Assembly (NCBI GenBank): GCA_951406725.2
Contig: OX597832.1
Coordinates: 34,534,001-34,598,000 of the forward strand
From: Octopus vulgaris
Taxonomy: Eukaryota
Length of the DNA stretch: 64,000 nt
Direction of reading: 5' to 3'
Below are positions 1 through 62,814 of the stretch, piece by piece; the first letter of the stretch is position 1; every line of letters starts with the position of its first letter. Both the position numbers and the translations under genes were made by a program. Below the pieces are notes generated by a model. It did not search any database. It had not been told where the DNA came from and worked only from the letters and a program-made list of their open reading frames with translations.

Positions 1-3079
<3,079 letters not shown>

Positions 3080-3646
3080 AAGATGGCGCTGAACTAACAA
3101 CAAGTGTGTTAACGTCTCTCTCCTAAACATTAAGGAAGTCCTTCCAGAGATCGATGTTATCAGAAGCGAAATTGTCTGCAAAGCGAATATAAGTGAAAGT
3201 ACAACAAGTCACTGTATTTGAGAAGAATATTTTCGCTTTTGATATAGTGTTTTGCAACTAGAACATACTCGCGAATACACGTGTTAAAACGCACGTGTGT
3301 TACTTTCCCGAAATCGAAGTGAATTTTATTCTTCGTCTGTGAATCAACAAGACACAGGATATTTTCGTTTTTGATGTATATCTGCGTGTTCTGAAAAAAG
3401 CCTCTGAAAAATTTGCTGCTTAATACCAAATCGCTTAGGGAAATACAAACTGTTGCACGTGCTAAATCGAAACTCAAATCCCTTTTGTTTACAAAGCGCT
3501 TGGGGAATAAAAGGTCTGTCTTGTCTATCTATCTTCCTTTCTCATAAAAAGGAATCGCGTAAGTACTCTCTCTCAGCCGGTAAGGTAAGGAAAAAAAATA
3601 TATTACTTATTTTGTTATCATTAGTGTTCTTTCAAACAGAAAATAA

Positions 3647-4800
3647 TAATATATCTATGTGTATGTATATGTGTGTGTTAGAAGTATAGCCGCAATTATT
3701 TTTAGAAGACATTGTTTTAGCGACGGACAAATGTATATCTTCTTTTCTCTTTTTCTCTGCTTAAATTCTGTAAAATCTCTATGTGTATGTATATGCGTGT
3801 GTTAAAAGTATAGTCGCAATTAGTTTTTATTTTTTATTTTAGAATACATTGTCTGTAGCGACAAATACATATTTTCTTTTCTCTTTTTCTCTGCTTAATT
3901 TCTGTAAAATCTCTTGGATTGTTTTCTTTCAGCTATTTCATTATTATTATTATTGTTTCTTTATATACTCACTTGGTACTACTGTTTATATATGTGCATG
4001 TGCACACGTGTGTATATGTGTGTATGTGTATGCGTGTATGTGTGTGTACAAATAGCTTCGCTTAGAATTCTCCCCTCTCTTTTTCTCTGCTTAAATTCTG
4101 TAAAATCTCTTGGATTGTTTTCTTTCAGCTATTTCATTATTATTATTATTGTTTCTTTATATACTCACTTGGTACTACTGTTTATACATGTGCGTGTGCA
4201 CACATGTGTATATGTGTGTATGTGTATGTATGTATACGCGTGTGTGTGTGTGTACAAATAGCTTCGCTTAGAATTCTCCCTCTCTCTCTCTCTCTCTGTC
4301 TGTCTCTTCAGTTTCTCTCACTCACGCTTCTCCTTGTCTCTTCATAGCTCTCATTCTATCTTACTCCCCTCTTTCAAATATATAAATTCTCTCTATATTT
4401 CTTCCTTCTCTCCCTATCTCTTCAGTTTCTCTCCCGCTTCTCTTTGTCTCTCCATTACTCTCTTCTATCTCTTCAGTTTCTCTCCCGCTTCTCCTTGTCT
4501 CTCCATTTCTCTCTTCTAACTTACTCTCCTCTCTCGGATACATATAAGGACATAGACGCTTTCTCTCTCTTCCTTCAGCTCTCGGTCTCTCCTCTTCCTC
4601 TTCTCTCTTACTCTCGGCTCCCAATTTCTCCTTAAGTACATAGACGCTCCCTTTCTCTTCTAACTTACTCTCCTCTCTCGGATACATATAAGGACATAGA
4701 CGCTTTCTCTCTCTTCCTTCAGCTCTCAGTCTCTCCTCTTCCTCTTCTCTCTTACTCTCGGCTCCCAATTTCTCCTTAAGTACATAGACGCTCCCTTTCT
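3647..4800 (+). repeat. Tandem duplications in family B 5' UTR
   Basis: ~200-bp units at ~3880 and ~4080; 144-bp CT-rich direct repeat starting at 4517 and 4661. Confidence 0.85.
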
Positions 4801-4960
4801 CTACTTTCTCCCTACCCCCTATTGCACTATTAGATTAATATAAATTAATATAATATAATATAATATAATTCCTCCCTTCCTCACAATCACAATCTCTTCC
4901 TCTCTCCTCCCTTCTCCCTTTTTCCCTCACAGCTTCTCTCTCTCTCCCCGCTACAACGGA

Positions 4961-5897
4961 ATGGACAACATGCAAAAATTAGAGGTGAATGCAAACACTG
5001 GCGTCAACAAAAGCCAGCGTAACTGGACGAAAGTAGAGCTGGAAGTTTTCATCAGAGGATGGAGCTCGGCCGACAGATCGCAACCAACTAAAAACATAGC
5101 GGCGACCCTGAAAAGCCATGGCTTTATGAGGACGTTGGCGCAAGTAGAGAGGAAGAAAAGAGAAGTCGAAAGGGCCTACACTCTCATTGCACCACACATG
5201 GCTTTGCTAAGCCAAGTCCTCAAGGTGGACAAAGACAAAGAGAGAGAGATGGAAACAGGAAACACCAACCACAGAGTGTCAAAAAATGACACGCCCACTG
5301 CCACAGTCGAAGAAGGCAAGCAGGGCAAACAACAGATAGGCGGCGATGGGGAAACAGAAAATAACCACCCGGATGAAAAGACCTATGCAGAAAGGAACCA
5401 GTGGACAACCGTCCAACGGAGGAAGAAAAAAACAGAGAGGAACTGGGGACAAGAAAACCCAGATAACATGCAAATTCTTCCGGAATGGAACCTGCTGGCA
5501 TGGAGAAACAGGGGAAGGATGCAGGTTCGCTCATCCCAGGCCCTATGGAAATTGCATCAAACCCACTCGACCAAAATGCCTTAACCAAAACCAGAACAAA
5601 TACAAGCTGCCCCAGAAATATGCAGACATAGTGCGTAATGCCCCAACAAGGAGAAGGCGCACATTTGCAGAGGAAATGCAGACGGCGGCAGCAGAACAAA
5701 GAAATTTTGTGGAAATGGCAGAGAAAATTGTGGGACAACTGGCCTGGATACATCGTCTTCAGAGCCAGGGGCACTCACAACAGCACTCAAGACCACCACA
5801 ATCAAGGGACCCAGGGTGGCCACCGCTGACGCCGGCCCAGGTGCCACACCGTCAGCCTTTATTGACACCCCGGGTGTCTCACCAGTGCTTCTGCTGA
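4961..5897 (+). CDS. LINE ORF1 (Myb/SANT-like trihelix + CCCH zinc finger), split by one frameshift near 5426-5432
   Basis: Frame 4961: NWTKVELEVFIRGW...IAATLKSHGFMRTLAQVERK; frame 5346: CKFFRNGTCWHGETGEGCRFAH and YADIVR; both halves align to the unbroken family C ORF1. Confidence 0.85.
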
Positions 5898-8839
5898 ATG
5901 TCAGAGGTCTGGTGAAACCCACTAATATGGGTAAAATTCCTTACCTTAGGGACTTGAGCACAAGCAACCATGCAATATGCATAGCGCTGACTGAAACGCA
6001 CCTGTCAAGCAGTATAGCAGATGCAGAAATACACATACCGAAGTATACTGTTTTTCGGTCGGACAGGAAGGAAAGAACTCATGGTGGGGTTGCCCTGTAC
6101 GTCCGTGAAGACGTCAAACCCATAGTACTGTTGACACACTCAAACTCAGTCTGTGACACACTGATAGTACACATGAAACAACCGAAAATAGTAATATGTG
6201 TCACATATCGGCCACCAGACACCCCTAGTCATGAAGGAGTGTTTGAAGATAGCCTCAGAAGAATAGAAGAAGTCCTGGACAAACTGGACCAGGGTAACAC
6301 CATTCTACTGCTGGGAGATTTTAACCTTCCGAAAGTCAAATGGCCAGATGGCCATCTCCTCCCTGGAATGACATCACTTGAACAGAGACAGACAGAGTCC
6401 TTGTTGGCTCTCACACGCAAGTTTTTCATGGAGCAAGCAGTGCTTTGGCCAACAAGAGGTGAGAATGTCTTGGACCTCTGTTTCACAAGCAACCCGATGC
6501 TCATCCACAACATAATGGTAACACCAACAATTCTCTCAGATCACAACTTAGTAGAGGTAATGATATATGGTATGAGAGAGTTAGTTGAGACGCAGCCATT
6601 AGAAAATACCACAGGCCTATCCAGTCTAAACTTCCATAAGGCAAACTGGAAGAAGATCAACGAAGAGATCCGAAAACATGACTGGAGTGACTTCATCACC
6701 ACACAAGACACCAACACACATTTCCAACATTTCATGACAACAATACAGAACATATGCCATAAGTTTGTCCCGGAGAAAAAAGCCAGCGGGCATAGGAACG
6801 TTATTCCCAGAGACAGGAAAATACTTATGAGGCGAAGAGCTAAGCTCTCGAAGCAACTGAATGCACGGCAGAGAAACAATGAGGGACTCCACCTGAAACT
6901 TTTTGAAACGGAAACTGCACTCAAACTTTCCTATGAGAAGGAGAGGGCAGAGAGAGAAGCCAGGGCCATAGAGAATATTAAAACAAACCCTAAAGCCTTC
7001 TTTAAATTTGCGAAAGAAACCACCTCGGTACACTGCAAGATTGGCCCACTCTTTGATAAAAAGGGCTCTCTAACTGAGGACCCCCAAGGGATAAGTGAAA
7101 TACTAAAGGAACAGTATAAAAGTGTGTTCACATCCCCTCTGGGGCACATGCAAATCACAAACCCAGAAGTTTTCTTTGATGCCACAACACTCCAAAACCA
7201 AACAACATCCATCGACCACATAGACATAACAGAGAGGGATGTAATATCTGCCATAGAAGAAATGAGCATAAACTCAGCTGCTGGACCAGATGGATTCCCA
7301 GCAGTCCTCCTAAAAACATGCAGGCATGCCCTAGCGGGACCACTGAAGAAGCTCTTCAGTGGTTCCTTGGCTAACGGTAAACTGCCCAGGGCGCTAAAAG
7401 AAGGCACCATATGCCCTATCCACAAAGGAGGGAGTAGAGCAGAGGCCAAAAACTACAGGCCAGTCTCCCTGACGTCACACATAAGTAAGGTCATGGAACG
7501 AATCATCAGAAAAAAACTGATCACGTTCCTCGAAGAAACTAACCGTCTCACTGACACACAGCATGGCTTTCGCCCAGGAAGAAGCTGCCTTACGCAGCTG
7601 TTACAACACTACGACTGGGTACTGAAACAACTACTGGATCGCTCACAGGTGGATGTGGTATATCTCGACTTTGCGAAGGCCTTTGACAAAGTCGACCACG
7701 GAGTGATATGTCACAAATTACTCAGACTCGGCATAACAGGAAAAGTAGGTGAGTGGATACATGACTTCCTGAAGGACAGAAGCCAGATGGTTGCAGCCAA
7801 TGGAGCCCTCTCGGGAAAGACACCAATAGCAAGCGGGGTGCCACAGGGCACAGTCTTGGGACCCTTGCTGTTTTTGGTGGCGCTCTCTGACATGCCCTTG
7901 GTAGCACAAACAACATCCCTCACTAGCTATGCTGATGACACAAAGGTAGCACAGGCAATCAAAAACCCAGCTGATGCTGACCTTTTACAACAAGATCTGG
8001 ATGCCATATACAAATGGGCTGAAGACAACAACATGCAATTTAATGCTGGTAAATTTCAAGCCTTACAATATCAAGCTGTAAACACATATACATTACAACA
8101 CAACTATACTGGTCCAGGAGGGATCGAAATCCCAGTATCGAAATCAATACGGGACCTGGGGATAGACATGAGTGACGATGCATCTTTTTCTTCACACATC
8201 GCGAAGGTGGCGACAATGTGCAGACGACTCACTGGCTGGATCCTGAGGACATTCCGGACAAGAGACTGCGAGACCATGTTGACACTATGGAGGACATTTG
8301 TCCTAAGCCGCCTGGACTACTGCTCCCAACTGTGGTCACCGCATAGTGTCAAACTAACCACAGAGCTTGAGACAATCCAAAGACATTTCACCAAGAGGAT
8401 TTCCACCATGAAAGAAAAGAACTATTGGGAGAGGCTTAGGGAACTCAATTTGTACTCCTTGGAACGAAGACGAGAGAGATATGCAGTGATATACATATGG
8501 AAAATCCTGGAGGGACTAGCACCAAATTTTGGAATTGAGAGCTGTTCCAATCCCCGTACAGGACGTCACTGTGTGGTGCCAAAGGTCCCGTCTTCCACAT
8601 CCAGGGTAAGGAGCAGATACTGTAATAGCCTGGTGTTCAGGGGCCCTCAGCTTCTCAACAAACTGCCAAGAAAACTAAGAGATCTACATGATGCGGATGT
8701 GGACATTTTCAAAAAACATCTACACAAGCTGCTTTCCGGGATCCCAGATGAACCCACTGCAAGGTACGAGGGTAACCTAAGGGCAGCAGCTACAAACTCT
8801 CTCTTAGATCAGTGGCCAGCCACGGCAAACTGGACTTAG
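5816..8839 (+). CDS. LINE ORF2, APE endonuclease + reverse transcriptase, 1007 aa (GTG start)
   Basis: LLNVRGL, LTETHL, GDFNLP, SDHN (APE); [37 protein letters not shown] (RT); uninterrupted. Confidence 0.96.
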   Translation: MATADAGPGATPSAFIDTPGVSPVLLLNVRGLVKPTNMGKIPYLRDLSTSNHAICIALTETHLSSSIADAEIHIPKYTVFRSDRKERTHGGVALYVREDVKPIVLLTHSNSVCDTLIVHMKQPKIVICVTYRPPDTPSHEGVFEDSLRRIEEVLDKLDQGNTILLLGDFNLPKVKWPDGHLLPGMTSLEQRQTESLLALTRKFFMEQAVLWPTRGENVLDLCFTSNPMLIHNIMVTPTILSDHNLVEVMIYGMRELVETQPLENTTGLSSLNFHKANWKKINEEIRKHDWSDFITTQDTNTHFQHFMTTIQNICHKFVPEKKASGHRNVIPRDRKILMRRRAKLSKQLNARQRNNEGLHLKLFETETALKLSYEKERAEREARAIENIKTNPKAFFKFAKETTSVHCKIGPLFDKKGSLTEDPQGISEILKEQYKSVFTSPLGHMQITNPEVFFDATTLQNQTTSIDHIDITERDVISAIEEMSINSAAGPDGFPAVLLKTCRHALAGPLKKLFSGSLANGKLPRALKEGTICPIHKGGSRAEAKNYRPVSLTSHISKVMERIIRKKLITFLEETNRLTDTQHGFRPGRSCLTQLLQHYDWVLKQLLDRSQVDVVYLDFAKAFDKVDHGVICHKLLRLGITGKVGEWIHDFLKDRSQMVAANGALSGKTPIASGVPQGTVLGPLLFLVALSDMPLVAQTTSLTSYADDTKVAQAIKNPADADLLQQDLDAIYKWAEDNNMQFNAGKFQALQYQAVNTYTLQHNYTGPGGIEIPVSKSIRDLGIDMSDDASFSSHIAKVATMCRRLTGWILRTFRTRDCETMLTLWRTFVLSRLDYCSQLWSPHSVKLTTELETIQRHFTKRISTMKEKNYWERLRELNLYSLERRRERYAVIYIWKILEGLAPNFGIESCSNPRTGRHCVVPKVPSSTSRVRSRYCNSLVFRGPQLLNKLPRKLRDLHDADVDIFKKHLHKLLSGIPDEPTARYEGNLRAAATNSLLDQWPATANWT

Positions 8840-8907
8840 AGAGGGTAGCAACAAGGGCGGTGCCCCAGCATGGCCTCAGCCGGAGGCTGAAACAAGTAAA
8901 AGAGTAA

Positions 8908-8999
<92 letters not shown>

Positions 9000-9000
<1 letters not shown>

Positions 9001-9245
9001 TCTTTTACTCATTTACTTGTTTCTGCCATCGGCTATATATATATACCATTATGCTACCTCTCTAAGTCCTGTTTGCGTATATATGGCCACTGATCTATAT
9101 ATAGTATATAGCTATATGCCCTTATTACCTTCATATGCATGGTATCATATGGATCCCGAAAGCAATATATAGATATACATTTATAAAATGTCCACATCCA
9201 CATCATGTAGAACTCTTAGTTTTCTTGGCAGTTTGTAAAACCTGA
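9000..9245 (-). other. Inverted family B 3' end blended with TA (probable consensus artefact)
   Basis: Blocks match the reverse complement of ~8660-8905 (ctctctaagtcc, ggccactgatct, aaaatgtccacatcc, cttagttttcttggcagtttg) with TA substituted between them. Confidence 0.75.
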
Positions 9246-9276
9246 CCATATAATATTACAGTATATGCTCCTTACA

Positions 9277-29553: not shown

Positions 29554-32500
29554 AGACGTCGCACAGTATACAATATGGTGAGGTTGTTCATTGAAGACAT
29601 TGTATCTACCGAGGGTTTGTTCTGTTTGTCAAGTCACAACAAGGACCTCAGACAGACAGTACTTTACGCAATATGCATGCAGTTCAAAGTAAAGCCAACT
29701 TTTGCAATGCATCTAGATTGTAGGGTAGCTCTAAGGTATTCAGATGGGGTTTTTTTCAGATTGGGTGGTTTGAACCTAATGCTCCGATGACAATAAGGTT
29801 AACCTTTATGTTCGACTCTCGTAGCTGCCACATCTTAGCGATCTCGATTCTCAGATCTCCATATTTATCAACTTTCTCTCTTTCTTTAATGATGATGTGT
29901 TGAACTCCTACGTCAATTATTAGGCACTCCTGTTTGGCCAATCTAAAGCCTTCGGTGTTCTAACACTTTGTCTGTCTGGAAATCAAAGTCTCAGAGGATT
30001 TTTGCTTTCCCCTTTTCGTCCATTACCTTTTCCGGTGTATGTTGGTACCAAGCACCCGTAACCTCAGATCCATACTTTCGGCATAGTAGCCGATGGAGGC
30101 TTTGGGCTACTTTGTTGTGTCTATGCTTGCACTCTTTATGCGCAAGACTTTCACAAGCACTAACAATGTGAGTCACACTTTCGACCCTCTTCCCGCACAT
30201 TCTGCAGAGATCCAATACACTTGTATGGTACATATTCTTTTTCAGTGAGTTGGTATTCAATGCCTTGTCCTATGCCGCGAGGATTAAGCTTTTAGTATTC
30301 TTTTTAGGTCACCCTTCTACAGCCACCTCCATGATGCTCCCTGGTCTTTTAATTCGTTGGTTTCACGGTGGAACTGACCATGTAATCCCATACGGAGTAG
30401 GCTTTCTTCTCTTGGTTGTTCTTGTTCGGAATTCATGAGCACTCTCAAGTCCATGTTTGTTAACCCCTTCTGCACTAGCAGCATACTCTAGCAGGTCTTC
30501 TTTGCTGTTTACCAAATATTCTGCCATGTTTCTTCTTTTCTGATTGATGCACTCCCGTACGCTAATCAGCCAACGTCCACCCTTACCTCTCTTCATGTAG
30601 AGCCTGTGTACATTTGCCTTAGGGTGGAGGGCACCACGCATTGTCATTGTCTTTCGGGTAGTTCGATCGAGTTGGTTAATCTCCACTAGTGTCCATCTCA
30701 AGATGGATGCACTATAGCGGATTATAGCAAGAGCCCATATGTTGATGGCGGTCACAAGGTTCCTTGAGTCGGGTTTTGTGGCGCTTGAAATAGCAGTGGT
30801 GACCTTGTCTTTAGTTTCTCTGTACAAGATATTGTCCAGCTCCAGGATCCCAAGGTACTTGTACCCATCATCATCTGGGTCTTCCATTCTCTCTCCGTTT
30901 GGAAATTCTATGCCCCTACAATTTACTCTTTTCCTCCCGCTTCAAAGTAAGCACTGCACACTTCGAGATACTGAATTCCATCCCTATATCCTTACTGCAC
31001 ATTTGCTCAGTCTCAACCAGCCTCTCCATTTCGGCTCTGTTTTTGCGAACAGTTTTAAATCATCCATGAAGAGAAGGTGGTTGAGGCGAGGTCCGTTCTT
31101 TCTCAGTTCATAGTGCACGTTGATTTTATGTGGGATCAAGGCTATAATAAATAACAGAGGTGAACAAGAATCTCCTTGGAAGATACCTCTTTTGATTGTT
31201 ACCTCGGCTAAGTGCTGGTGGTTACAGGAAAGACGTGTTTTCCAACTAGGAATGTTGTTCTTAATCAGTACACACAGCTATTCCACACATGTCGAGTGTT
31301 TCCAAAATCCACGAATGCGGCAACATGTCGTAAGCCTTTTTGAAGTCTATCCAGGCCACGCATAAGTGTTTTCGGTACCGTTTCGTTCTTCATTATAACC
31401 TTCTCTATCACAAGGTGGTCCTTGGTGCCCTTGGATCCTTTTTGGCATCCTTTTTGTTCTACTGGCAGAAGATTGTTTTCTTCAAAGAACGTATATATTT
31501 TCTCTGTGAGAGTACCTATTAATACTTTCCATAGAAGGTTAAGACAAGCTATGGGTTGGTAATTGCCAACCTCATTGCCTTTTGACCGATCTTTCCTTAA
31601 CAATGTTGATCTACCCTCTACCATCCACTCCCGATCTGTACCGTTCTGTTGTCAATTGTCTAATTGCAACTCAATTCTCTTGTGTATTGACTTGAACCAC
31701 TTGAGCCAGTGGATTCCGTCTGGTCCTGCTGCTTTCCAATTTGGCAGTTTTGATATCTGTGCAATGACATCTTCCCTTGTTATGGACACATGGTCCTGTC
31801 GGGGAGCCTCCGAGTGATGGAGTTCTCATCTCACGGAATGAATCCACTCAGCTCTGTGGTTGTACGAAACGTCTTGCACCCAGATGGCAGGTTTCCTCTG
31901 CTTCAGGAGGTGTTTTATCTTCTGTATTTCCTCCTAAGCCCTTAAAAAAACTGCCTCTGGATATTTGAGTATAACCGGTTTTACTGGAACTGCGATATGA
32001 GATCAGTGTAGCGCTGCACCTTAATTTTTTGAGCCCGCATATGTTTTAGTGTTTCGATGGAAGTTTTGAACCTTTCTTTTCTATTTGGTACTTCCTTTTC
32101 CATTTCATTGCCCTTTTGACCACTCTTCTATGCAGCTGAGATCTTTACGCAAAGTTAAAATATCGCCTTCAATTCTCCGCTTCCACTATGGCTACTTTTG
32201 TCCGTCTACTTTCCTCTCTTGCTTTCCAACCAGGTCACCTACTAAAATTGATGCGAATCTGATCAAATCCCTTGTTTCTGTTAGATCTTTTGTCAGAATG
32301 TGTTTCAGAATCTCATCAACTTTTTGGGTCGCACGTTTCACATTGTTAGGTTCGAAGCTTCTTAGATTCACTAACTTGGTCTCTGTTCTTGTAATTCTTA
32401 TATCCTCGAGTCTTTTCCTGAAGTTTCTCAGTTCCTCAGTCATATCCTCTCTTATTTCAGGGTTTTCTACACTACATTGATTGACCGGCCTCTCCTCCAC

Positions 32501-34497: not shown

Positions 34498-35024
34498 TTA
34501 TCATAATCATTATTAAAATTATTACATGATATTTTAAATTAGCTGCATCAATTAGTACAGAAGTTTGGTGAAAACATGTCTCCTCAACCCTCAAGAAGCC
34601 ATCTTAGGATTCTTGCAGAATACAAGACTGCATTTTTCTGCCGCTCGACAAATGCGAGTTTGAATTCCAGCATTGTTCCGTTTTCCCTGTAGCAGTAGCA
34701 GAATGGCTGTTGTGCTAAGTGCACTTACACCCCTTTCTTTTATCGTATTTCGGTAGGCACGCTTCTGTAATAGCATTCAGTCACATTCCTATAGTTGTTT
34801 TGGGACCATCTTCTCTTAAACTTTGCATAACGACTAGCCCATCCAACTGTATAGTGAAACACTTGCCGGATAAGAGATTCTGCTTGGAGATCCGGCCTCA
34901 TAAACACAGTTGAGGTACCATTTGCCGTATTGAGGTGTTACATATACCGATGCTTATCAAAACTATCAACTCTCGGTTGTTGCCAACCAAAGTTCCAGAG
35001 ACTTTCATTCTTTACTATTTACAA

Positions 35025-35248
35025 TACTCTTTTACTCTTACTTGATTCAGTCATGTGACTGCAGCCGTGCTGAAGCACCGCCTTTAGTCGAGCAAATCGG
35101 CCCGAGGACTTATTCTTTGTAAGCCTAGTACTTATCCTATCGGTCTCTTTTTCCGAACCGCTAAGTTACGGGGACGTAAACACACCAGCATCTGTTGTCA
35201 AGCGATATTGGGGGGGGGACAAACACAGGCACACAAACATATACACAC

Positions 35249-35304
<56 letters not shown>

Positions 35305-35421
35305 CACAGGTTTCTTTCAGTTTCCGTCTACCAAATCCACTCACATGACTTTGGTCGGCCCGAGGCTATAGTAGAAGGCACTTGCCCAAGGTACCACGCA
35401 GTGGGACTGAACCCGGAACCA
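35025..35421 (-). mobile_element. tRNA-derived SINE family 1, 5'-truncated
   Basis: Reverse complement of the 62398-62808 element, including LINE-like tail and (AAGAGTA) repeat. Confidence 0.88.
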
Positions 35422-37134
35422 TATACAATAAAGCTTTCATTCGGTTTCGTAGTAATCCACTAAAATGTCCCCTTTCTCAGTTGGGTCATTAATAACAAGG
35501 ATGGCCTGTTATCACCATTGTTGCTGTTGTTGATGTTACTTAACCTTAGCTTAGTGCTGTGTAGCTGGCCCCTAATCAAAGGCGTTTCATTTTCAGATAT
35601 CGGAAAGGATTACTTTTCCTTCATGTGTCTCTCCTAATTCTAAAGACGTTGATGTGTGATTGTGATGCTCACTTAGGCTCCTAATTCTAACAGATCGAAA
35701 GACTACATAGAGGATCCATCGATAAATGTTTTGCCTTTGTTGTTGCATAACCCAAGTCTGAGTTGATAGAATCTACATTTAGTTTGTTGCCATTCCGTTC
35801 GTTCTCTCAGACATAATTGAACAACTCCATTATTCATCCTCTTTCGAGTATTTGTTTCCTTCTGTTTATTATTACATCATTCAATGTAATCTTCTTATTT
35901 TTAAGACATACGGTGTGATTTCAAAGAACATTGCTACTATTTCTAGCAAGTTGTACGACCACGTAAAGAGTTCCGCGTTGATTCATCTTTTCTTTTGGGG
36001 ATTCTTCTTGAAAACGTCAAACCATTTCCTTTATATATTTTTTTTTCCTTTTTTTTTTTTTGGCTTTTCTTTTCGGAACAGCATCCTTGTCTGTTTTATT
36101 TAATCAAGTGTTGTGCCTTTCCAAGAAAACTTTGCATTCATCACATTTCGGCGATTCTAGAACGAATGAAAACCAATTCCATTATTCACAACGACAACGA
36201 CGGCTACGAGATCTCCAAGTCAGATATTATCTGTTTGATGAATAGCTGCAGCGGGAAAAACAGAAGCTGATTTAATTCAAATCGGAAAAGTTCTGGCAGA
36301 GAACAATGGAAGATTTCAGGTGCCAGCGATATAGCGTATTGATTCCTCAATAAAAGGCGGCTCGGCGGAGCGACGGTGGGGAGTTCAAAGTGTCAGTGTC
36401 GATGTCAGATACAGAACAGTGCTTAACTAAAGGCTTTATACTATTTTAGTTAGAAACATCAAGGTTCTGAGTTCGAATTCATCTGTGGTCGATATTGTCT
36501 TTCAACTCACCCACTCGCTTTCTTGATATTAACCAATAAAGAAACCGCTATATTACTGCTTTTAAACCTTTTGGGGGATTCAACATCGTCTTTCAGTGAA
36601 TAGTGTATTACAGAGGCCCTCTTCGCATGTTTTGCAAAACTAAAAAAATAAAACTCTATGTGGCTCAGAAGCTCACTTTGCTGCCACGTGGTTTCAGATT
36701 CAGTCCCACTGTCCAGCACCATCGGCATATAAACCTGGACTGACGAATATCTTGCGAATGAATCCGGTAAACGAAACTTGTCCTATATAGCTACATCAAA
36801 CTCCATTCTTCACCAAGTGCCACATATTGAAGGAGACCCTCATTAATAACTGTAGCAAAACGGCAGTGCATCAGCATGGTCGCAGCTCTGAGCTGAAACT
36901 ACAGAGAAAAAAACATATAATTTCACTAGAAGCGATAAATAACCGGACTCAAACCGAGCTGTGTTTCTATTTTGAAATATTCATTCTTTGCATATTTTTT
37001 CGAATTACAAAATGAACCCTTAAGACAAAACACTAGGCCTTATGTTCTTTTATTCAAAACAACCTCTATAAACATAAGGATACGCATTTTTTTTTCAAGT
37101 TTCATTTCATATTTCAGGTGATGGCCGATAAGAT

Positions 37135-37355
37135 ACATATGCGTCTGTGTGTTTGTGTTTTTCATCTCCCCACCGCTTGAAAACTACTGTTTGTTTATTT
37201 ATGTTTCCGTAACTTATAGAGTGTTCATGAAAAGAAATCCATGGAACAAGCACTCGACGTCAAAAACAAATCCATAATTACTGCGGTCGATTTGTTCAAC
37301 TAAAACTCTTCAAGGTGGTGCTCCATTATGGCCGCAGTTCAATGACTGAAATAAA
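37135..37355 (+). mobile_element. SINE family 1, degenerate 3' half
   Basis: aaggtggtgctccattatggccgcagttcaatgactgaaa tail. Confidence 0.65.
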
Positions 37356-38018
37356 TAAATGAGATAAAATAGATTTATCTGAAATAGATTTACTTGAAAT
37401 AAATAAATACAATACGATAAAAGATAGGTGCTAATTTTGAGCTGTTGTTTATAGATATTTGCATAGAATGGCCCCTATGTTAAAACTTTTTATGAGCATT
37501 ACTAAAGAAGAGGAATACTTAGATAACGAAATTTTATTGGACATTAGTTCATCATTAGATGTTTCTGCTCACTGAAAGCACATCTAACTCTGATATACTC
37601 ATTTTCTAAGACCAAACAAAATCGGTGAGTTGGCTGAGTTGCGAGTGACGAAAATGTTGCCTTAGTGGTATTTGTTTTGGCTCTTCATTTCCCGAGTTCA
37701 AATCCCGATGAGATCAACTATGTCTTTCATCCTTTCCACTGTGATAAAGTACAATAAACTACCAAAAACCGTTAAATTCACTTCAACAATTAAACGTAAT
37801 TTACCAAAATATTTTCGTTGCTTTGAGACCGCAACCTGTTCACTGACAAAATTCCGTTCTGTTACGTATTAAAGAAATAAATGCAGATCTGGATAATTTA
37901 ATCTTAGAACTCGCTGAAATGACCAGATTATATAGTCGAAGATGCACAGATTATATAGTCAAGGATTATATAGTGTGCATCCTCGACTATATACATGTAT
38001 ACACACACACACACATAT

Positions 38019-38345
38019 TATCTTTTATTTGCTTCAGTCACTAGCCAGCAGCCATTCTGGAGCACCACTTTGAAAGGGGTTTTTATTTTCTATGTATCAC
38101 TTGCCAAGCCACTGAGGTTAAGTTAGGGGGACGTCAACAAACCAATACCAGTTGTCGAGCAGTGGAGTAAGGAAAACAAAAGCACACTCACACATGAACA
38201 CCTATACTCTTGCACACACACACACACACGCACACACACATGCACACACACACACACATATATCCGTCGGGTTTCTACAGCGATTTTGCTTTTCATATTA
38301 ACTCAGATAGCATTGGTCTATCCAGTGCTATAGAGGAACACAATT
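38019..38345 (-). mobile_element. SINE family 1, degenerate copy
   Basis: ttcagtca...gccattctggagcacca tail and ggggacgtcaacaaacca body. Confidence 0.6.
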
Positions 38346-38697
38346 GGAAAAGGTGCCGCGAAACTAACAAAAAAGGGCGGAATGATTGTATCTGGATTGA
38401 CGGGTGCATGATCTGTGCGATCTGCACGAACATATAGCTCGACTTAATCTACAATAGCGAAGATTTTACACACGATATTCACAAACCTCGGGACTAAAGA
38501 AACGAAACGAACTTAGAAGTAAAAAAAAAACCCTAATTTAACGGAAAAAGCATATAGCAAAACCTTGACATATTTTTGTAATTGTAGAGATTTTGTGGTT
38601 TCCTTTTTGTCTACACGTTCTCCCACAATCAAAGTTAGTCATCAACGGAATAATGACGATAATTACCCATTCAGCATTACAGTGAACCACGAAGAAT

Positions 38698-47282: not shown

Positions 47283-47460
47283 ATATGGCTGTGAGGTTAA
47301 GGAATTCGTTTTGAAAACGCGTATTCAGTACCACTTTCGGGTTCAGTCCCGCTGCGCAGTACCTTAGTCAAGAATTTTCTACTGTACACCAAGAGCAGAT
47401 CAGTGCCTAATGAGTGAGTTTGAAAGACGGAAACAGAGTAGAAGCCCGCATTTTATACAC

Positions 47461-47495
<35 letters not shown>

Positions 47496-47676
47496 TGTAT
47501 GTTAATACATCCAACACCCTGACAACTTGTGTTGGTTTGTTTGCATCCTCGTAACTTACCAGTTCGGCAAAGTATACAATAGAATAAGAACCAAAATGAA
47601 AATAAAGGACAGAGGTCGAGTCAAAGTGGTGTCACAGCATGGTCGGTCGCTGTTCAATGACTGAAACAAGCAAAAG
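47283..47676 (+). mobile_element. SINE family 1, degenerate copy
   Basis: gggttcagtccc box, agacggaaac...gaagccc, (TG)n, atgactgaaacaag tail. Confidence 0.65.
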
Positions 47677-47981
47677 ATTTATCATATATGTGTATATATA
47701 TATATATACGCAGAAGAATTTGTATGCAATACACACTATATATTATATATGTGTGTGTTAAGAGAGAGAAAGAGTATGTGTGTGTATTTGTGTGCTTGTG
47801 TGTGGGGGGGGGGGGAATTAAATGACAAGGAAACTGCGCGAAAATATCTGAACTTTCCCAAGTGTAAAGGTTTTAATGTCACACAGGAAAAGAGAGAGAG
47901 AGAGACAGACAGTCAGACAGAGAGCTAGATAGACAGACAGACAGAAAGGGAGTGGTTGAGGGAGAGAGAAACAGGCAAAGA

Positions 47982-54485: not shown

Positions 54486-57400
54486 GATTGATTGATTGAT
54501 TGATTCTAGTTTCAGCTTATGAGCTGTGGCCATGCTGGGGCACCGCCATTTTTTGTTGCTACTTGGTTTCACTTCATGGAGGCTTTCTAGCAGCTGCTAT
54601 TTGGTGCATGAGAGAGTTCGATGCAGCTGCCCTCATCTGCCCCTCCTGCCGTGAAGTTGGTTCATCTGGGACACCTGACAGGAAGAGATCCAGCTTCATT
54701 TTAAAGACATCTGTATCCACCCCATGCAGGTCTCTCAGGTTCTTCGGGAGGATATTGAAGAGCTGTGGGCCTCGGAAGCCCAGGCTATCACAGTATCTTG
54801 TCCTACATCTTGATGGCAGGTTTGGAGTCCTAGGCACCACGCAGTGGCGCCCAGTTCTGGCATTTGCGTAACTCTCGATGCCAAAGTTCAGGACACTTCC
54901 CTCCAGGATCTTCCAGATGTATATTATGGCATATCTTTCCCGCCTACGCTCCAGGGAATATAATTTTAATCTCTTGAGTCTTTCCCAGTAGCTTACATTC
55001 TGCATAGAGGCTATCTTCTTTGTGTAGCTTCGTTGGATCGCCTCAAGTTCTGTGATCAACTTGACACTGGATGGTGACCATAGCTGAGAGCAATAGTCAA
55101 AGTGACTTAGGACAAGTGTCTTCCAGAGGACCATCATGGTTTCTTGTTCTCTTGTTCTAAAGGTTCTAAGAATCCATCCAGCCAGCCGTCTACATTTCAT
55201 TGTCAGTTTAGCAACATGTACATGAAAGGTAGCGTCATCACTCATGTGAATACCCAGGTCACGCACTGATTGTGCCTCTGGGATTGCAATCCCTCCGGGT
55301 CCAGTGTATTCATTGGGTATTGCATTCAGTTTTGCATGCTGATAGTATAAAGCTTGAAACTTTCCAGCATTGAACTGCATGCTATTCTTTTCGGCCCACT
55401 TGTATATTTCGTCCAGCTCACATTGCAGGTGTTTAGTGTCCTCAGGGTTCTGTATTGCCTGTGAAACTTTTGTATCATCTGCATAACTTGTGATCGTGGC
55501 TCTCTGCGTGGCTGAGGGCATGTCTGAGAGGGCCATTATGAACAGTAGTGGTCCCAGAACAGTGCCCTGCGGAACACCGCTCACTATTTGTGTGTTAATG
55601 GAGGTGGCCCCATTGGCTACTACCACCTGACTTCTATCCTTCAGAAAGTCATGAAGCCATTCTCCCAGTTTTCCAACTATGTTGAGATCACGCAGTTTGT
55701 GACATATCATTCCATGATCGACTTTATCAAAGGCCTTTGCAAAGTCGAGATATATCACTTCCACATTTGAGTGGTTGAGCAGCCGTTTCAGCACCCAGTC
55801 ATAGTGTTGTAGGAGCTGAGTTAAACAGCTTCTCCCTGGTCGGAAACCATGTTGGGTGTCGGGCAGCAAGTCATTCTCTTCAAGGAAGGTGATCAGCTTC
55901 CTTCTGACTATTCGTTCCATGACCTTGCTGATGTGTGAGGTCAGAGAGATAGGTCTATAGTTCTTGGCTTCCGCTCTGCTACCTCCTTTATGAATGGGGC
56001 ATATTTTACCTTCCTTCAGTTTTCCTGGAAGTTTGCCAGCTGCAAGGAAGCTCTGAAAGAGGAACTGCAGTGGTCTTGCTAGGACTCTCTTACATGCTTT
56101 TAGGAGGATTGCCGGGAATCCATCGGGGCCAGTAGCTGAGTCTGTTTTCATTTCATCTATAGCCTTCGTTACATCGTCTTCCTTTATATCGATGTAATCT
56201 ATCGTCGCCGCCTCTGATTTTATATCTGCAGTGGTAAAAAAGTCAGTTGGATTGGTGATTTGGAGATGCCCAAGGGGTGGAGTGAAAACACTCTTGAATT
56301 GCTCATTCAGTATTTCACTTACCCTCATTGGTTTTCCTGTAAGTGTGCCATCCTTTTCGAGGAGTGGCCCTATTCTACAGTGCACTGTAGCTGTTTCTTT
56401 GGCATACCTGTAGAAAGCTCTGGGGTTAGATTTTATGTTTTCTATAGCCCAGGCTTCTTTGTCTGCTCTTTCTTTTTCATGGGAGAGTTGCAGACATTTT
56501 TCGATTTCCAACAGTTTTATTTTTAGGCGGGACTTTTCACTGCTTTCAATCTGTTTGTTTAGGCGATTTGAAAATTTCGTACGCCGTCTCATTAAAATTT
56601 TCCTCTCTCTGGGGATTTTGTTCTTGTGTACAGTGGCCTTTCTCTCTGGGACACATTTGTAGCATATGGCTTGCATTACAGACATGAATTGTTGAAGTTT
56701 CACGTCGATGTCTGGCGAGGAGAGACATTTAGGCCAGTTTTGTTTGAGGATCTCTTTCTCAATTTGTTTCCAGTTTGCCTTATGGTAGTTCAAGCTGGAA
56801 AGATTTTGAGGGTTTCTTATAGGCTGCATGTCCGTGCTCTCTTTTGGCCCGTACATGGTCAGCTCTATCATGTTGTGATCCGAGAGTAGTGTCGGTGTCA
56901 CTTTCACATTATGGATGAGATCCATGTCATTTGTGAAGCAGAGATCCAGTGTGTTACCTGCCCTGGTTGGTTGGAGTATTACCTGCTCCATGTACAGGGT
57001 GTTGATGAGGTTCAGGAGGGACCTCGCCTGTCCTCGTTCACATCTTGTCATTCCTGGGAGAGAAAGGCCCTCGGGCCATCTGACATTGGGCAGATTGAAG
57101 TCTCCCATAAGAAGCACACCTATGTGTTGTTCTAATGTGGTTAGAATTTCTTCTATTTTTATAAGGCAGTCTTCAAACTTGCCCACATGGCTTGGGGCAT
57201 CTGGAGGGCGATATGTAGCACACACAACTACATCAAGTTGCCTAATATGTACAATTAGTGTGTCACACACCGAGTTTGAGTATGACAAGAGGACCTGGGG
57301 TGTGAGGTCCTCACGGATGTACATAGCAACACCTCCATGACTCCTTTCTTTCCTGTCGGTCCGTAGTACAGCATACTGTGGTATGTGTAACTCCGCATCT

Positions 57401-57903
57401 GCTATGTCCGGTTTCAGGTGCGTTTCTGTAAGTGCTATGCATATGGCTTGATTGCATGCAACAAAGTCTCTCAGGAACGGGATCTTTGTCCTGTTACTGA
57501 GTGTTTGCAGTCCTCTGATGTTCAGTAGGAGTATCGAGGTGAGGTGTACGTTGTTGCCGGCGGTGTCCATCCTGTGTCTGTTTGCTGTGGTGGTCTGGTA
57601 TATAGTGGGTAGTCCCACCTGCGGGCTTGGGTTTGATGAAGCCAGGTCAGCTGCTGTACAATCTTTTGTGCCATGCACAAAAAGATTGTTGCTCAGCAGC
57701 TGCTCTTTCGACAACATCATGTTGGCTGTTTGTGGCGCGCACAACATCTGCGTACCTCCGCTTAGGGGCAGGTGGTGCGTGGTCCATCCCTTTTCTTTGT
57801 GTTGATGGTTTGTCCATCTGCCTCGTGTCTCTGTGGCAGGGTCCCCGATGTGCAAAGCGGCAGCCTGCACCTTCCTTTCCATGCCAGCAGGAACCTCTCA
57901 GGT
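54486..57903 (-). mobile_element. Family C LINE truncated within ORF1 (copy D)
   Basis: Nearly identical to 9454-12877; TA on both sides. Confidence 0.96.
54574..57570 (-). CDS. Intact family C ORF2 (APE + RT), 998 aa from MDTAGNN
   Basis: All APE and RT motifs including YADD; no stops or frameshifts. Confidence 0.95.
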
Positions 57904-59104
<1,201 letters not shown>

Positions 59105-62100
59105 CAGCGCACACTAGTGTGTATGTTCCAGCGCACACGGGTGTGTATGTTCTACCTGAGAGGTTCCTGCAGGCATGGAAAGGAAGGTGCAGGCTGCCGC
59201 TTTGCACATCGGGGACCCTGCCACAGAGACACGAGGCAGATGGACAAACCATCAACACAAAGAAAAGGGATGGACCACGCACCACCTGCCCCAAAGCGGA
59301 GGTACGCAGATGTTGTGCGCGCCACAAACCGCCAACATGATGTTGTCGAAAGAGCAGCTGCTGAGCAACAATCTTTTTCGTGCATGGCACAAAAGATTGT
59401 ACAGCAGCTGACCTGGCTTCATCAAACCCAAGCCCGCAGGTGGGACTACCCACTATATACCAGACCACCACAGCAAACAGACACAGGATGGACACCGCCG
59501 GCAACAACGTACACCTCACCTCGATGCTCCTACTGAACATCAGAGGACTGGTAAACACTCAGTAACAGGACAAAGATCCCGTTCCTGAGAGACTTTGTTG
59601 CATGCAATCAAGCCTTATGCATAGCACTTACGGAAACGCACCTGAAACCGGACATAGCAGATGCGGAGTTACATATACCACAGTATGCTGTACTACGGAC
59701 CGACAGGAAAGAAAGGAGTCATGGAGGTGTTGCTATGTACATCCGTGAGGACCTCACACCCCAGGTCCTCTTGTCATACTCAAACTCGGTGTGTGACACA
59801 CTAATTGTACATATTAGGCAACTTGATGTAGTTGTGTGTGCTACATATCGCCCTCCAGATTCCCCAAGCCATGTGGGCAAGTTTGAAGACTGCCTTATAA
59901 AAATAGAAGAAATTCTAACCACATTAGAACAACACATAGGTGTGCTTCTTATGGGAGACTTCAATCTGCCCAATGTCAGATGGCCCGAGGGCCTTTCTCT
60001 CCCAGGAATGACAAGATGTGAACGAGGACAGGCGAGGTCCCTCCTGAACCTCATCAACACCCTGTACATGGAGCAGGTAATACTCCAACCAACCAGGGCA
60101 GGTAACACACTGGATCTCTGCTTCACAAATGACATGGATCTCATCCATAATGTGAAAGTGACACCGACACTACTCTCGGATCACAACATGATAGAGCTGA
60201 CCATGTACGGACCAAAAGAGAGCACGGACATGCAGCCTACAAGAAACCCTCAAAATCTTTCCAGCTTGAACTACCATAAGGCAAACTGGAAACAAATTGA
60301 GAAAGAGATCCTCAAACAAAACTGGCCTAAATGTCTCTCCTCGCCAGACATCGACGTGAAACTTCAACAATTCATGTCTGTAATGCAAGCCATATGCTAC
60401 GAATGTGTCCCAGAGAGAAAGGCCACTGTACACAAGAACAAAATCCCCAGAGAGAGGAAAATTTTAATGAGACGGCGTACGAAATTTTCAAATCGCCTAA
60501 ACAAACAGATTGAAAGCAGTGAAAAGTCCCGCCTAAAAATAAAACTGTTGGAAATCGAAAAATGTCTGCAAATATAAAATCAGAGGCGGCGACGATAGAT
60601 TACATCGATATAAATGAAGACGATGTAATCAAGGCTATAGATGAAATGAAAACAGACTCAGCTACTGGCCCCAAAGTATTCCCGGCAATCCTCCTAAAAG
60701 CATGTAAGAGAATCCTAGCAAGACTACTGCAGTTCCTCTTTCAGAGCTTCCTTGCTGCTGGCAAACTTCCAAGAAAACTGAAGGAAGGTAAAATATGCCC
60801 CATTCATAAAGGAGGTAGCAGAGCGGAAGCCAAGAACTACAGACCTATCTCTCTGACCTCACACATCAGCAAGGTCATGGAACGAATAGTCAGAAGGAAG
60901 CTGATCACCTTCCTTGAAGAGAATGACTTGCTGCCCGACACCCAACATGGTTTCCGACCAGGGAGAAGCTGTTTAACTCAGCTCCTCCAACACTATGACT
61001 GGGTGCTGAAACGGCTGCTCAACCACTCAAATGTGGAAGTGATATACCTCGACTTTGCAAAGGCCTTTGATAAAGTCGACCATGGAATGATATGTCACAA
61101 ACTGCGTGATCTCAACATAGTTGGAAAACTGGGAGAATGGCTTCATGACTTTCTGAAAGATAGAAGTTAGGTGGTAGTAGCCAATGGGGCCACTTCCATT
61201 AACACGCAAATAGTGAGCGGTGTTCCGCAGGGCACTGTTCTGGGACCACTACTGTTCATAATGGCCCTCTCAGACATGCCCTCAGCCACGCAGAGAGCCG
61301 CGATCACAAGTTATGCAGATGATACAAAAGTTTCACAGGCAATACAGAACCCTGAGGATACTAAACACCTGCAATGTGAGCTGGACAAAATATACAAGAG
61401 GGCTGAAAAGAATAGCATGCAGTTCAATGCTGAAAAGTTTCAAGCTCTATACTATCAGCATGCAAAACTAAATGCAATACCCAATAAATACACTGGACCC
61501 GGAGGAATAGCAATCCCAGAGGCACAATCAGTGCGTGACCTAGGTATTTACATGTGTGATGACGCGACCTTTCGTGTACATGTTGCTAAATTGGCAATGA
61601 AATGTAGACGACTGGCCGGATGGATTCTCAGAACCTTTAGAACAAGAGAACAAGAAACCATGATGGTCCTCTGGAGGACACTTGTCCTAAGCCACTTTGA
61701 CTACTGCTCTCAGTTATGGTCACCATCCAGTGTCAAGTTGATCACAGAGCTCGAGGCGATCCAACGTAGCTACACGAAGAAGATAGCCTCTATGCAGAAT
61801 GTAAGCTACTGGGAAAGACTCAAGAGATTAAAACTATATTCCCTGGAGCGTAGGCGGGAAAGATATGCCATAATATACATCTGGAAGATCCTGGAGGGAC
61901 GTGTCCTAAACTTTGGCATCTAGAGTTACGCAAATGCCAGAACTGGGCGCCACTGCGTGGTGCCTAGGACTCCAAACTTGCCATCAAGATGTAGGACAAG
62001 ATTATGTGATAGCCTGGGCTTCCGAGGCCCACAGCTCTTCAATATCCTCCCGAAGAACCTGAGAGACCTGCATGGGGTGGATGCAGATGTCTTTAAAATG

Positions 62101-62313
62101 AAGCTGGATCTCTTCCTGTCAGGTGTCCCAGATGAACCAACTTCACAGCAGGAGGGGCAGACGAGGGCAGCTGCATCGAACTCTCTCATGCACCAAATAG
62201 CAGTTGCTAGAAAGCCTTCATGAAGTGAAACCAAGTAGCAACACCAAATGGCGGTGCCCCAGCATGACCACAGCTCATAAGCTGAAACTAGAATCAATCA
62301 ATCAATCAATCAA
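59105..62313 (+). mobile_element. Defective family C LINE truncated within ORF1 (copy E)
   Basis: 1-bp insertion near 59551, 262-bp deletion at ~60571, TAG stops at 61168 and 61921; (ATCA)n tail. Confidence 0.95.
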
Positions 62314-62397: not shown

Positions 62398-62808
62398 GGC
62401 GCAGGAGTAGCTGTGTGGTAAGTAGCTTGTTAACCAACCACATGGTTCCGGGTTCAGTCCCACTACGTGGCATCTTGGGCAACTGTCTTCTGCTATAGCC
62501 CCGGGCCGACCAATGCCTTGTGAGTGGATTTGGTAGACGGAAACTGAAAGAAGCCTGTCGTATATATGTATATATATATGTGTGTGTGTTTGTGTGTTTG
62601 TGTTTGTCCCCCTAGCATCGCTTGACAACCGATGCTGGTGTGTTTACGTCCCCGTCACTAAGCGGTTCGGCAAAAAAGACACCGATAGAATAAGTACTGG
62701 GCTTACAAAGAATAAGTCCCGGGGTCGAGTTGCTCGATTAAAGGCGGTGCTCCAGCATGGCCGCAGTCAAATGACTGAAACAAGTAAAAGAGAAAGAGAG
62801 AAAAGAGA
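62398..62808 (+). mobile_element. Full-length tRNA-derived SINE family 1 with LINE-like tail
   Basis: A-box-like tagctgtgtggt, B-box-like gggttcagtcc, internal TA/TG run, tail ggcggtgctccagcatggcc...ctgaaacaagtaaaagag. Confidence 0.88.
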
Positions 62809-62814
62809 ATACGT

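Follow-up and report, generated by a model that had tools for sequence, protein, structure and literature searches.

The LINE families and the SINE copies found in a 64-kb window of Octopus vulgaris DNA (the window being the whole of the stretch analysed) end in a common tail of 50 nt that is predicted to fold into two hairpins. A link between the SINE and this clade of LINEs is near certain. Judged by the tail sequences, one of the families, designated B, is the best candidate, still unproven, for the partner of the SINE.

Twelve tails are present in the window, in LINE families A, B, C (four copies) and F and in five SINE copies (Table 1). The DNA of families A, B and C is 69–78% alike. An earlier note on this DNA had claimed a tail motif common to A, B, C and the SINE, and that claim was borne out. 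The 20-nt motif of hairpin 1 has 10 matches in the window at three or fewer mismatches, as against none in 100 shuffles, and a covariance model, built from nine of the same 12 tails, returned those 12 in full and nothing further below E 0.7. All of the second hairpins quoted in the note were found in the sequence. Its list of tails was sound for the copies quoted, but it lacked family F (36862) and four older SINE tails.

Table 1. Positions of the LINE families, SINE copies, tail elements of family B and (TA)n arrays in the window
Feature	Position	Strand	Description
Family A, 3′ end	1..674	+	ORF2 end; hairpin 1 617-636, hairpin 2 638-651 with UUCG loop
Family B, putative 5′ region	3080..4858	+	196-, 51- and 144-bp tandem repeats; start fixed solely by (TA)n array edge
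Family B, ORF1	4859..5897	+	Two frames (frameshifted copy); weak Myb/SANT match, then CCCH finger
Family B, ORF2	5639..8839	+	1066 codons open stop to stop; APE-type endonuclease and reverse transcriptase
Family B, hairpin 1	8856..8875	+	3 bp, G/G mismatch, 4 bp; loop CCCA; mean pair probability 0.99-1.00
Family B, hairpin 2	8877..8889	+	5-bp stem CAGCC/GGCTG; 3-nt loop in window copy
Family B, terminal segment	8890..8907	+	AAAC-AAGTAAAAGAG-TAA; 15 nt identical to young SINE S1
Family C, copy C1	9456..13435	-	ORF1; ORF2 frameshifted once; ATCA repeats at end of tail (9520-9456)
Family C, copy C2	16449..17948	-	5′-truncated; tail from 16506
Family C, copy C3 (D in the earlier note)	54487..57903	-	ORF2 open; 5′-truncated within ORF1; tail from 54547
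Family C, copy C4 (E in the earlier note)	59105..62313	+	Internal deletion; tail from 62250
Family F, decayed 3′ end	36760..36910	+	Fourth LINE family; tail from 36862; hairpin 2 C-like
SINE S1 (young)	62398..62810	+	Pol III A/B-box-like head, CORE-like motif, internal TA/TG repeat; tail 62743-62792
SINE S2	35020..35422	-	Truncated head; 87-90% like S1; tail from 35082
SINE S3 (older)	37140..37364	+	Tail from 37314
SINE S4 (older)	38018..38360	-	Tail from 38069; end AAAAGAT
SINE S5 (older)	47335..47677	+	Tail from 47625; end AAAAGAT
(TA)n array following A	674-3079
(TA)n array following B	8907-8999
(TA)n array following C1	9279-9453
(TA)n array following C2	15234-16448
(TA)n array following C3	53284-54485
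(TA)n array between C3 and C4	57905-59104
(TA)n array following C4	62313-62397

Tandem repeats lie 5′ of ORF1 both in C1 (13542-14776, AT-rich units of 48–91 bp) and in B (3880-4802, units of 196, 51 and 144 bp), and are perhaps 5′ UTR monomers. The 5′ regions of B and C are alike in AT-rich patches only, so the proposed 5′ ends are not confirmed by comparison; the putative first bases of B, AAGATGGCG, resemble a YY1 site. Copies C3 (57903) and C4 (59105-59152) stand head to head across a single 1.2-kb (TA)n array, their truncations falling within 25 nt of the same ORF1 position, with a 24-bp duplication at the C4 start. A piece of a distant RT-bearing LINE, with ~30% identity to the ORF2 of B and C, was observed on the minus strand at 31276-31813.

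In order, the tail is made up of the 20-nt hairpin 1, a single linker base, the 14-nt hairpin 2, the bases AAAC and an end that is specific to each family. It begins 16 nt past the stop codon in B and 26 nt past it in C. Hairpin 1 is near-invariant, with 0–2 base differences among A, B, C and S1 and one mismatch in C4 (62250). Two adjacent hairpins constitute the minimum free energy (MFE) fold outright in eight of the 12 copies (A, B, C1–C3, F, S1 and S2); the MFE fold of C4 has two hairpins with one pair lost, S3 folds weakly, and S4 and S5 adopt a different fold. Pair probabilities in A, B, C1–C3, S1 and S2 were 0.76–1.00 in a 100-nt context, and fold z-scores against shuffles were modest, ranging from -2.8 to +0.15 over the tails (A, -0.65; B, -1.26).

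Some details of the B tail had been read otherwise in the earlier note. Its second hairpin is indeed present, but the stem is better given as CAGCC/GGCTG, which is the MFE fold and is in register with the other families. AAGAGTA, which had been proposed as the terminal repeat of B, occurs once in the window copy and is not repeated there; SINE S2 has the repeated form, as does the inverted fragment described below (9000-9275), and the unit is better read as TAAAAGAG. The observation that the SINE ends exactly like B was correct, ctgaaacaagtaaaagag being identical in B (8887-8904) and S1 (62775-62792). The end of family A carries two TTTAAGGA repeats.

The tail motif was also sought in other collections. 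It had no matches in viral contigs or in bacterial genomes, and 42 metagenome matches were dismissed as chance, since they lay in GC-rich DNA with no ORF2 match and no second hairpin. Distant ORF2 relatives, at 26–40% identity, were found in 80 MAG contigs and none in viral contigs. No tail was detected among those 80 (best E 1.8), many of which end before the LINE 3′ end; the sole 3′-placed match, in L069, was rejected in view of its different fold. The tail was thus not traced outside this LINE clade. The 80 contigs (L043–L122), bacterial or archaeal MAG contigs with a eukaryote-type LINE ORF2, represent host contamination.

The tail had been described as a covarying double hairpin, a description that applies to hairpin 2 (two compensated pairs) but not to hairpin 1, which is conserved in sequence and therefore yields no covariation. 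In a set of nine tails, 97.2% of cells were paired, and the covariation score exceeded those of all 500 shuffles, a procedure that ignores kinship among the tails. Two pairs in this set are changed on both sides, which is not above shuffles (272 of 500), and both are in hairpin 2, with none in hairpin 1; for all 12 tails the number is three (85 of 500 shuffles). At pair 4 of hairpin 2, every LINE has C-G where the SINE has U-A. At pair 5, families A and B share C-G with the young SINE, and families F and C carry U-A apart from copy C1 (9520), which like S3 shows U-G; the U-G pairs would be intermediates of the C-G to U-A change. The closing pair of hairpin 2 is broken in family A. A crude simulation gave a chance of 0.0024 for two such compensated lineages, a rough figure that involves a post hoc choice. 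With only five lineages, no formal significance attaches to the compensated pairs.

The tail of S1 was compared with that of each LINE family. It is apparent that B gives the best match, at 43 of 50 positions with a gap counted as a mismatch, as against 34 for A, 34 for C and 31 for F. Nearly all of this lead derives from the last 11 bases, where S1 matches B at 11 of 11 and the other families at 4–5; the chance of a complete terminal match, calculated from the composition of the other tails, is ~6e-6. In hairpin 2, S1 matches B at nine of 15 positions and the other LINEs at seven, two of the four bases of loop 2 and one stem pair differing between B and the SINE. Hairpin 1 gives 19 matches with B and 16–19 with the other LINEs, and does not distinguish B, given how nearly identical it is across A, B and C. 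For S2, S3 and S4, B was also best or tied best over the whole tail (36, 36 and 34, versus 26–32); S5 was excluded from the count on account of a 4-nt insertion. The older SINEs share the end of B only up to AAAAGA and then diverge.

The likeness between the SINE and the LINEs starts sharply at the first base of hairpin 1. In the 30 nt upstream of the tail, SINE–LINE comparisons gave 3–14 matches and LINE–LINE comparisons 6–12, with six for S1 and B; the 14 for A and S1 was set aside as within the LINE–LINE range (up to 12).

Family B was next sought in public sequencing runs. Of the words sampled from its last kilobase, 83–84% are present in 16 of the 24 runs listed, from seven studies and under two organism labels. 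Contigs from four runs were compared with positions 8560-8918 at 80% likeness, giving 1474, 15, 40 and 42 contigs; run X1 was covered to ~80% and X10 wholly (15 contigs), and four metatranscriptome runs with low shares were left out of the comparison. In each of runs X10, X6 and X13, one contig joins the end of the B ORF2 to the tail, with five, four and two other letters, respectively, and one extra base. The window copy is within ~1.5% of the family contigs. These joins in three runs show that B is a real, young, multi-copy family and not a chimera. The extra base is probably a T behind position 8884, the depth of which in X10 is 68.6 (13.9 + 47.5 + 7.22, a sum that includes the B contig); this depth suggests that loop 2 of the family is 4 nt long. 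The match between B and S1 would then be gapless, at 44 of 50 by hand count.

Several other features were observed in these contigs. In X1, 264 contigs depart from B after 8903 with the consensus TAAAAGAT..., and S4 and S5 end likewise; by its sequence this end is evidently that of an older SINE subfamily, B-like only up to AAAAGA. One contig is identical to S1 over the 27 nt upstream of the tail. Five contigs, from X1 and X6, carry the tail (8856-8907) head-to-tail or looping back, with 2–34 letters between. In X13, a run whose type is presumed, three contigs of depth below 4 have clusters of changes within 8560-8870, at 25 places for A>G or at 11 for T>C, a pattern resembling ADAR hyper-editing of B-family RNA on both strands. 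The window itself contains, on the minus strand at 9000-9275, an inverted B 3′ end that is ~75% alike, with changes mainly to T and A forming TATA runs. This fragment also shows the extra T of loop 2, and with B it makes a rough palindrome around the (TA)n array; it probably arose as a fold-back or as an artefact of assembly or polishing.

As to the identity of the SINE, the head of S1 has motifs resembling the Pol III A and B boxes. An Rfam search with the SINE returned nothing, with no tRNA match up to E 5. The CORE hallmark CCTTGGG, as given in the available text of PMC5786205, is exact in S2 and has one mismatch in S1. tRNA-Core is a main octopus SINE type according to the accessible part of PMC8967140, and the octopus tRNA-CORE SINEs OR1 and OR2 (Ohshima and Okada 1994) are cited in the portions available of PMC4824008 and PMC4758252. 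The SINE of the window resembles OR1/OR2 in its octopus host, its apparently Pol III-type head and its CORE-like CCTTGGG, a likeness of description rather than of consensus. No partner LINE for OR1/OR2 was found in the literature searched.

The ORF2 of B contains an APE-type endonuclease followed by an RT (PF14529, E 2e-12; PF03372; PF00078, E 3e-30). Among its named matches, the best is from Argonauta hians (63%), and bird RT proteins, which we take to be CR1, match at 34–37%. On protein sequence, the families likely belong to the CR1 group, the tree having no labelled clade references. The ORF1 of B (4859-5897, plus strand) is homologous to that of C1 (12494-13435, minus strand). Its 31 relatives are less than 50% identical to each other (50%-identity clusters); of 10 that were checked, six are from O. 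vulgaris or O. sinensis, five of these being from O. vulgaris. The ORF1 has sub-threshold Myb/SANT and CCCH matches, and no Pfam match at E 0.5 to RRM, CCHC, PHD or esterase (ORF1 types I–IV). Its N-terminal 70 residues were modelled confidently as a helix bundle (pLDDT 84–96), and the best structural matches were Myb/SANT/trihelix domains, namely those of LUX (Z 7.7, rmsd 1.9, 55 aligned) and GT-1 (Z 7.7, rmsd 8.1, 76 aligned), both Z values being below the 8 that rules out a common arrangement. A Myb/SANT/trihelix-type domain is predicted from the model. No match to ORF1 was obtained in a word-indexed search, in Atlas or in PDB sequences, or with Foldseek at E 0.001. ORF1 type is not fixed within CR1, and CCCH, Myb and SANT go unmentioned in the available part of a survey of CR1/L2/Jockey ORF1s (PMC4120745).

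By analogy with stringent LINEs such as ZfL2 (PMC4176376), the ORF2 protein would bind the shared tail. Hairpin 1, retained letter for letter across families that are only ~70–78% alike, may be a recognition element for the whole clade, and in hairpin 2 it is presumably the 5-bp stem that is maintained, the loop being free to vary. Reverse transcription would start in the terminal repeat at the target nick, here usually in a (TA)n array. The SINE would have gained its tail from the B lineage by template switching, the shared end marking descent from that lineage and, probably, continued use of it. The position of S1 between (TA)n arrays, as for young LINEs, supports this link.

On balance, B or a close relative of B likely supplies the ORF2 protein for copying the SINE in trans. 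The proposal that B is its autonomous partner accordingly stands in part: a structured tail of LINE origin is shared, and of the four families in the window B matches best, but the partnership of B itself is opposed by the differing loop 2, the common hairpin 1 and the departure of the older SINEs after AAAAGA. In ZfL2 the loop carries the specificity and the stems can be swapped, according to the available text of PMC4176376; in the octopus, A, B and C have loop 1 in common and B does not share its loop 2 with the SINE, which counts against B. The frameshift in its ORF1 means that the window copy is not itself a clean source copy. It is possible, if clearly less probable, that the true donor and partner is an unsampled family of the clade with the hairpin 2 of the SINE, B being merely the nearest in the window. 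Neither the U-A that the SINE has at pair 4 nor the AA that opens its loop was seen in any LINE, and many more lineages exist: two additional ORF2 lineages, P0002 and P0003, fall inside the clade (100/99) in a tree that leaves the position of B undecided, there are the 31 ORF1 relatives, and 169 CR1 consensus families, 13 of them recently active, are given for O. vulgaris in the accessible part of PMC13282606. Against this, the loose-end rows listed for four runs immediately before hairpin 1 (8856-8864) were SINE-like in 12 of 12 cases and LINE-like in none. The earlier note had allowed that another LINE might match the SINE tail better; none appeared among 21 of 109 loose-end rows, a weak test in that each row is a consensus that hides minorities. 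Moreover, accepted pairs commonly differ at five or six positions in 50. The accepted range for bivalve CR1-Zenon/SINE pairs, in the portion of PMC11481361 available, is 35–61 bp and 72–95%, and the match between B and S1, falling within it, is comparable.

It is rather unlikely that the SINE is served by the whole clade, the ORF2 proteins of A, B and C all reading hairpin 1 and the end common to B and the SINE being a retained ancestral state. The near-identity of hairpin 1 favours such service, as does the grouping of A and C apart from B (95/97), in which case their different ends could be the derived state; in addition, one bivalve CR1-Zenon tail matches four SINE superfamilies (PMC11481361, available text). 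The agreement of the young SINE with B, however, extends as far as the G of the TAAAAGAG unit, which is absent from the older SINE copies, and this suggests that the SINE has tracked the B lineage over time. There is little likelihood that the direction was reversed, with template switching or gene conversion having passed the end of the SINE, by far the more abundant element, to B, although identity between the two is perfect in the last 18 nt only and tail-bearing non-B contigs far outnumber B contigs in X10 (14 of 15). B shares the upstream spacer motif GTAGCAA with C and F, and pair 4 of its hairpin 2 is still the C-G typical of the LINEs; a transfer could therefore have involved no more than the last few bases. 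That the likeness is due to chance, or to a chimeric assembly of LINE body and SINE end, is scarcely credible: the TA-riddled inverted copy adjoining B does look like an assembly artefact, but the ORF2 end is joined to the tail in three independent runs, and the motif is absent from the shuffles.

The (TA)n arrays around the young copies were also considered. The TA fraction is at least 0.7 at six of six young LINE 3′ junctions and at three of the five visible 5′ junctions in this one window; the 5′ junction of C3, beside a 1.2-kb array, has 0.67, and the 5′ end of C2 abuts no array. S1 is flanked by arrays on both sides. None of six junctions of older copies reached the threshold. As background, TA accounts for 16% of the 43,190 bases outside the elements, a share that falls to 2% when arrays touching an element are left out. 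As copies share arrays and two 5′ ends are set by an array edge, the association is suggestive only. It is possible that the young LINEs target (TA)n; seeding of the arrays, or passive survival in them, is a possible alternative. (AT)n makes up more than 10% of a squid genome. The non-LTR elements Waldo, Mino, Kibi, Koshi and Dong target the microsatellites ACAY, AC, TC, TTC or TAA (PMC3812793, in the part available), and resemble the octopus LINEs in being APE-type, with copies lying within simple repeats at both ends. They differ in that the list in the accessible text of this 2013 review has no (TA)n target and does not name CR1, and in that the octopus case comprises six copies in one window. 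No (TA)n-targeting CR1 was found in the literature searched.

Sharing of tails between SINEs and LINEs is itself a textbook mechanism. In bivalves, BivaV-SINE2 and BivaCORE-SINE1 are paired with CR1-14_CGi (PMC4824008), and Vhc_1 with CR1-1/14_CGi (PMC4758252), as stated in the available parts of those papers. These systems, so far as the texts at hand describe them, are like that of the octopus in combining a mollusc tRNA-type SINE with a CR1-group LINE through a short stem-loop tail with compensatory changes, in the same range of length and identity. They differ in mollusc class and families, and the octopus has several sister LINEs with one invariant and one covarying hairpin. The octopus tail motif was not found in supplements of published work, and the likeness to bivalves drawn here is one of description. 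ZfL2-1/ZfL2-2 (PMC4176376) and UnaL2/UnaSINE (PMC3747384) also have, in the portions available, a short 3′ UTR made up of a stem-loop and a terminal tandem repeat, with the stem kept and the loop varying by family; they belong to the L2 clade and have one tested stem-loop per element, function having been assayed there and being inferred here. The review table of SINE/LINE pairs, in the accessible text of PMC3747384, is without octopus, and no octopus SINE/LINE pair or tail motif was found in the literature searched; Repbase or Dfam may already record the pair.

Since shared, compensated SINE/CR1 tails are known from bivalves, the octopus pair adds to a known class. SINEs account for ~12% of the O. 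vulgaris genome (PMC13282606, available part), and no partner LINE for the octopus SINE of CORE type appeared in the literature searched, so a named candidate driver closes a small gap. Stringent tail discrimination has so far been tested mainly in L2 elements, and a set of sister families in which one hairpin is fixed and the other free offers a ready-made swap system for tail recognition by stringent LINEs. A broader proposal, tentative and unlikely to hold in full, is that this octopus CR1-type lineage targets (TA)n via the Myb/trihelix domain of an undescribed ORF1 (Myb plus CCCH), that its tail is a code with hairpin 1 as the key of the clade and the loop of hairpin 2 plus the terminal repeat as that of the family, and that the dominant octopus CORE-SINE is driven by the B branch, which would also contribute to the very large (AT)n load of cephalopod genomes. 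The (TA)n arrays and the Myb/CCCH ORF1 may matter more than the SINE/LINE tail pairing; should the (TA)n preference and the Myb-type ORF1 prove general across the genome, they would represent a new target and a new clade among microsatellite-targeting LINEs.
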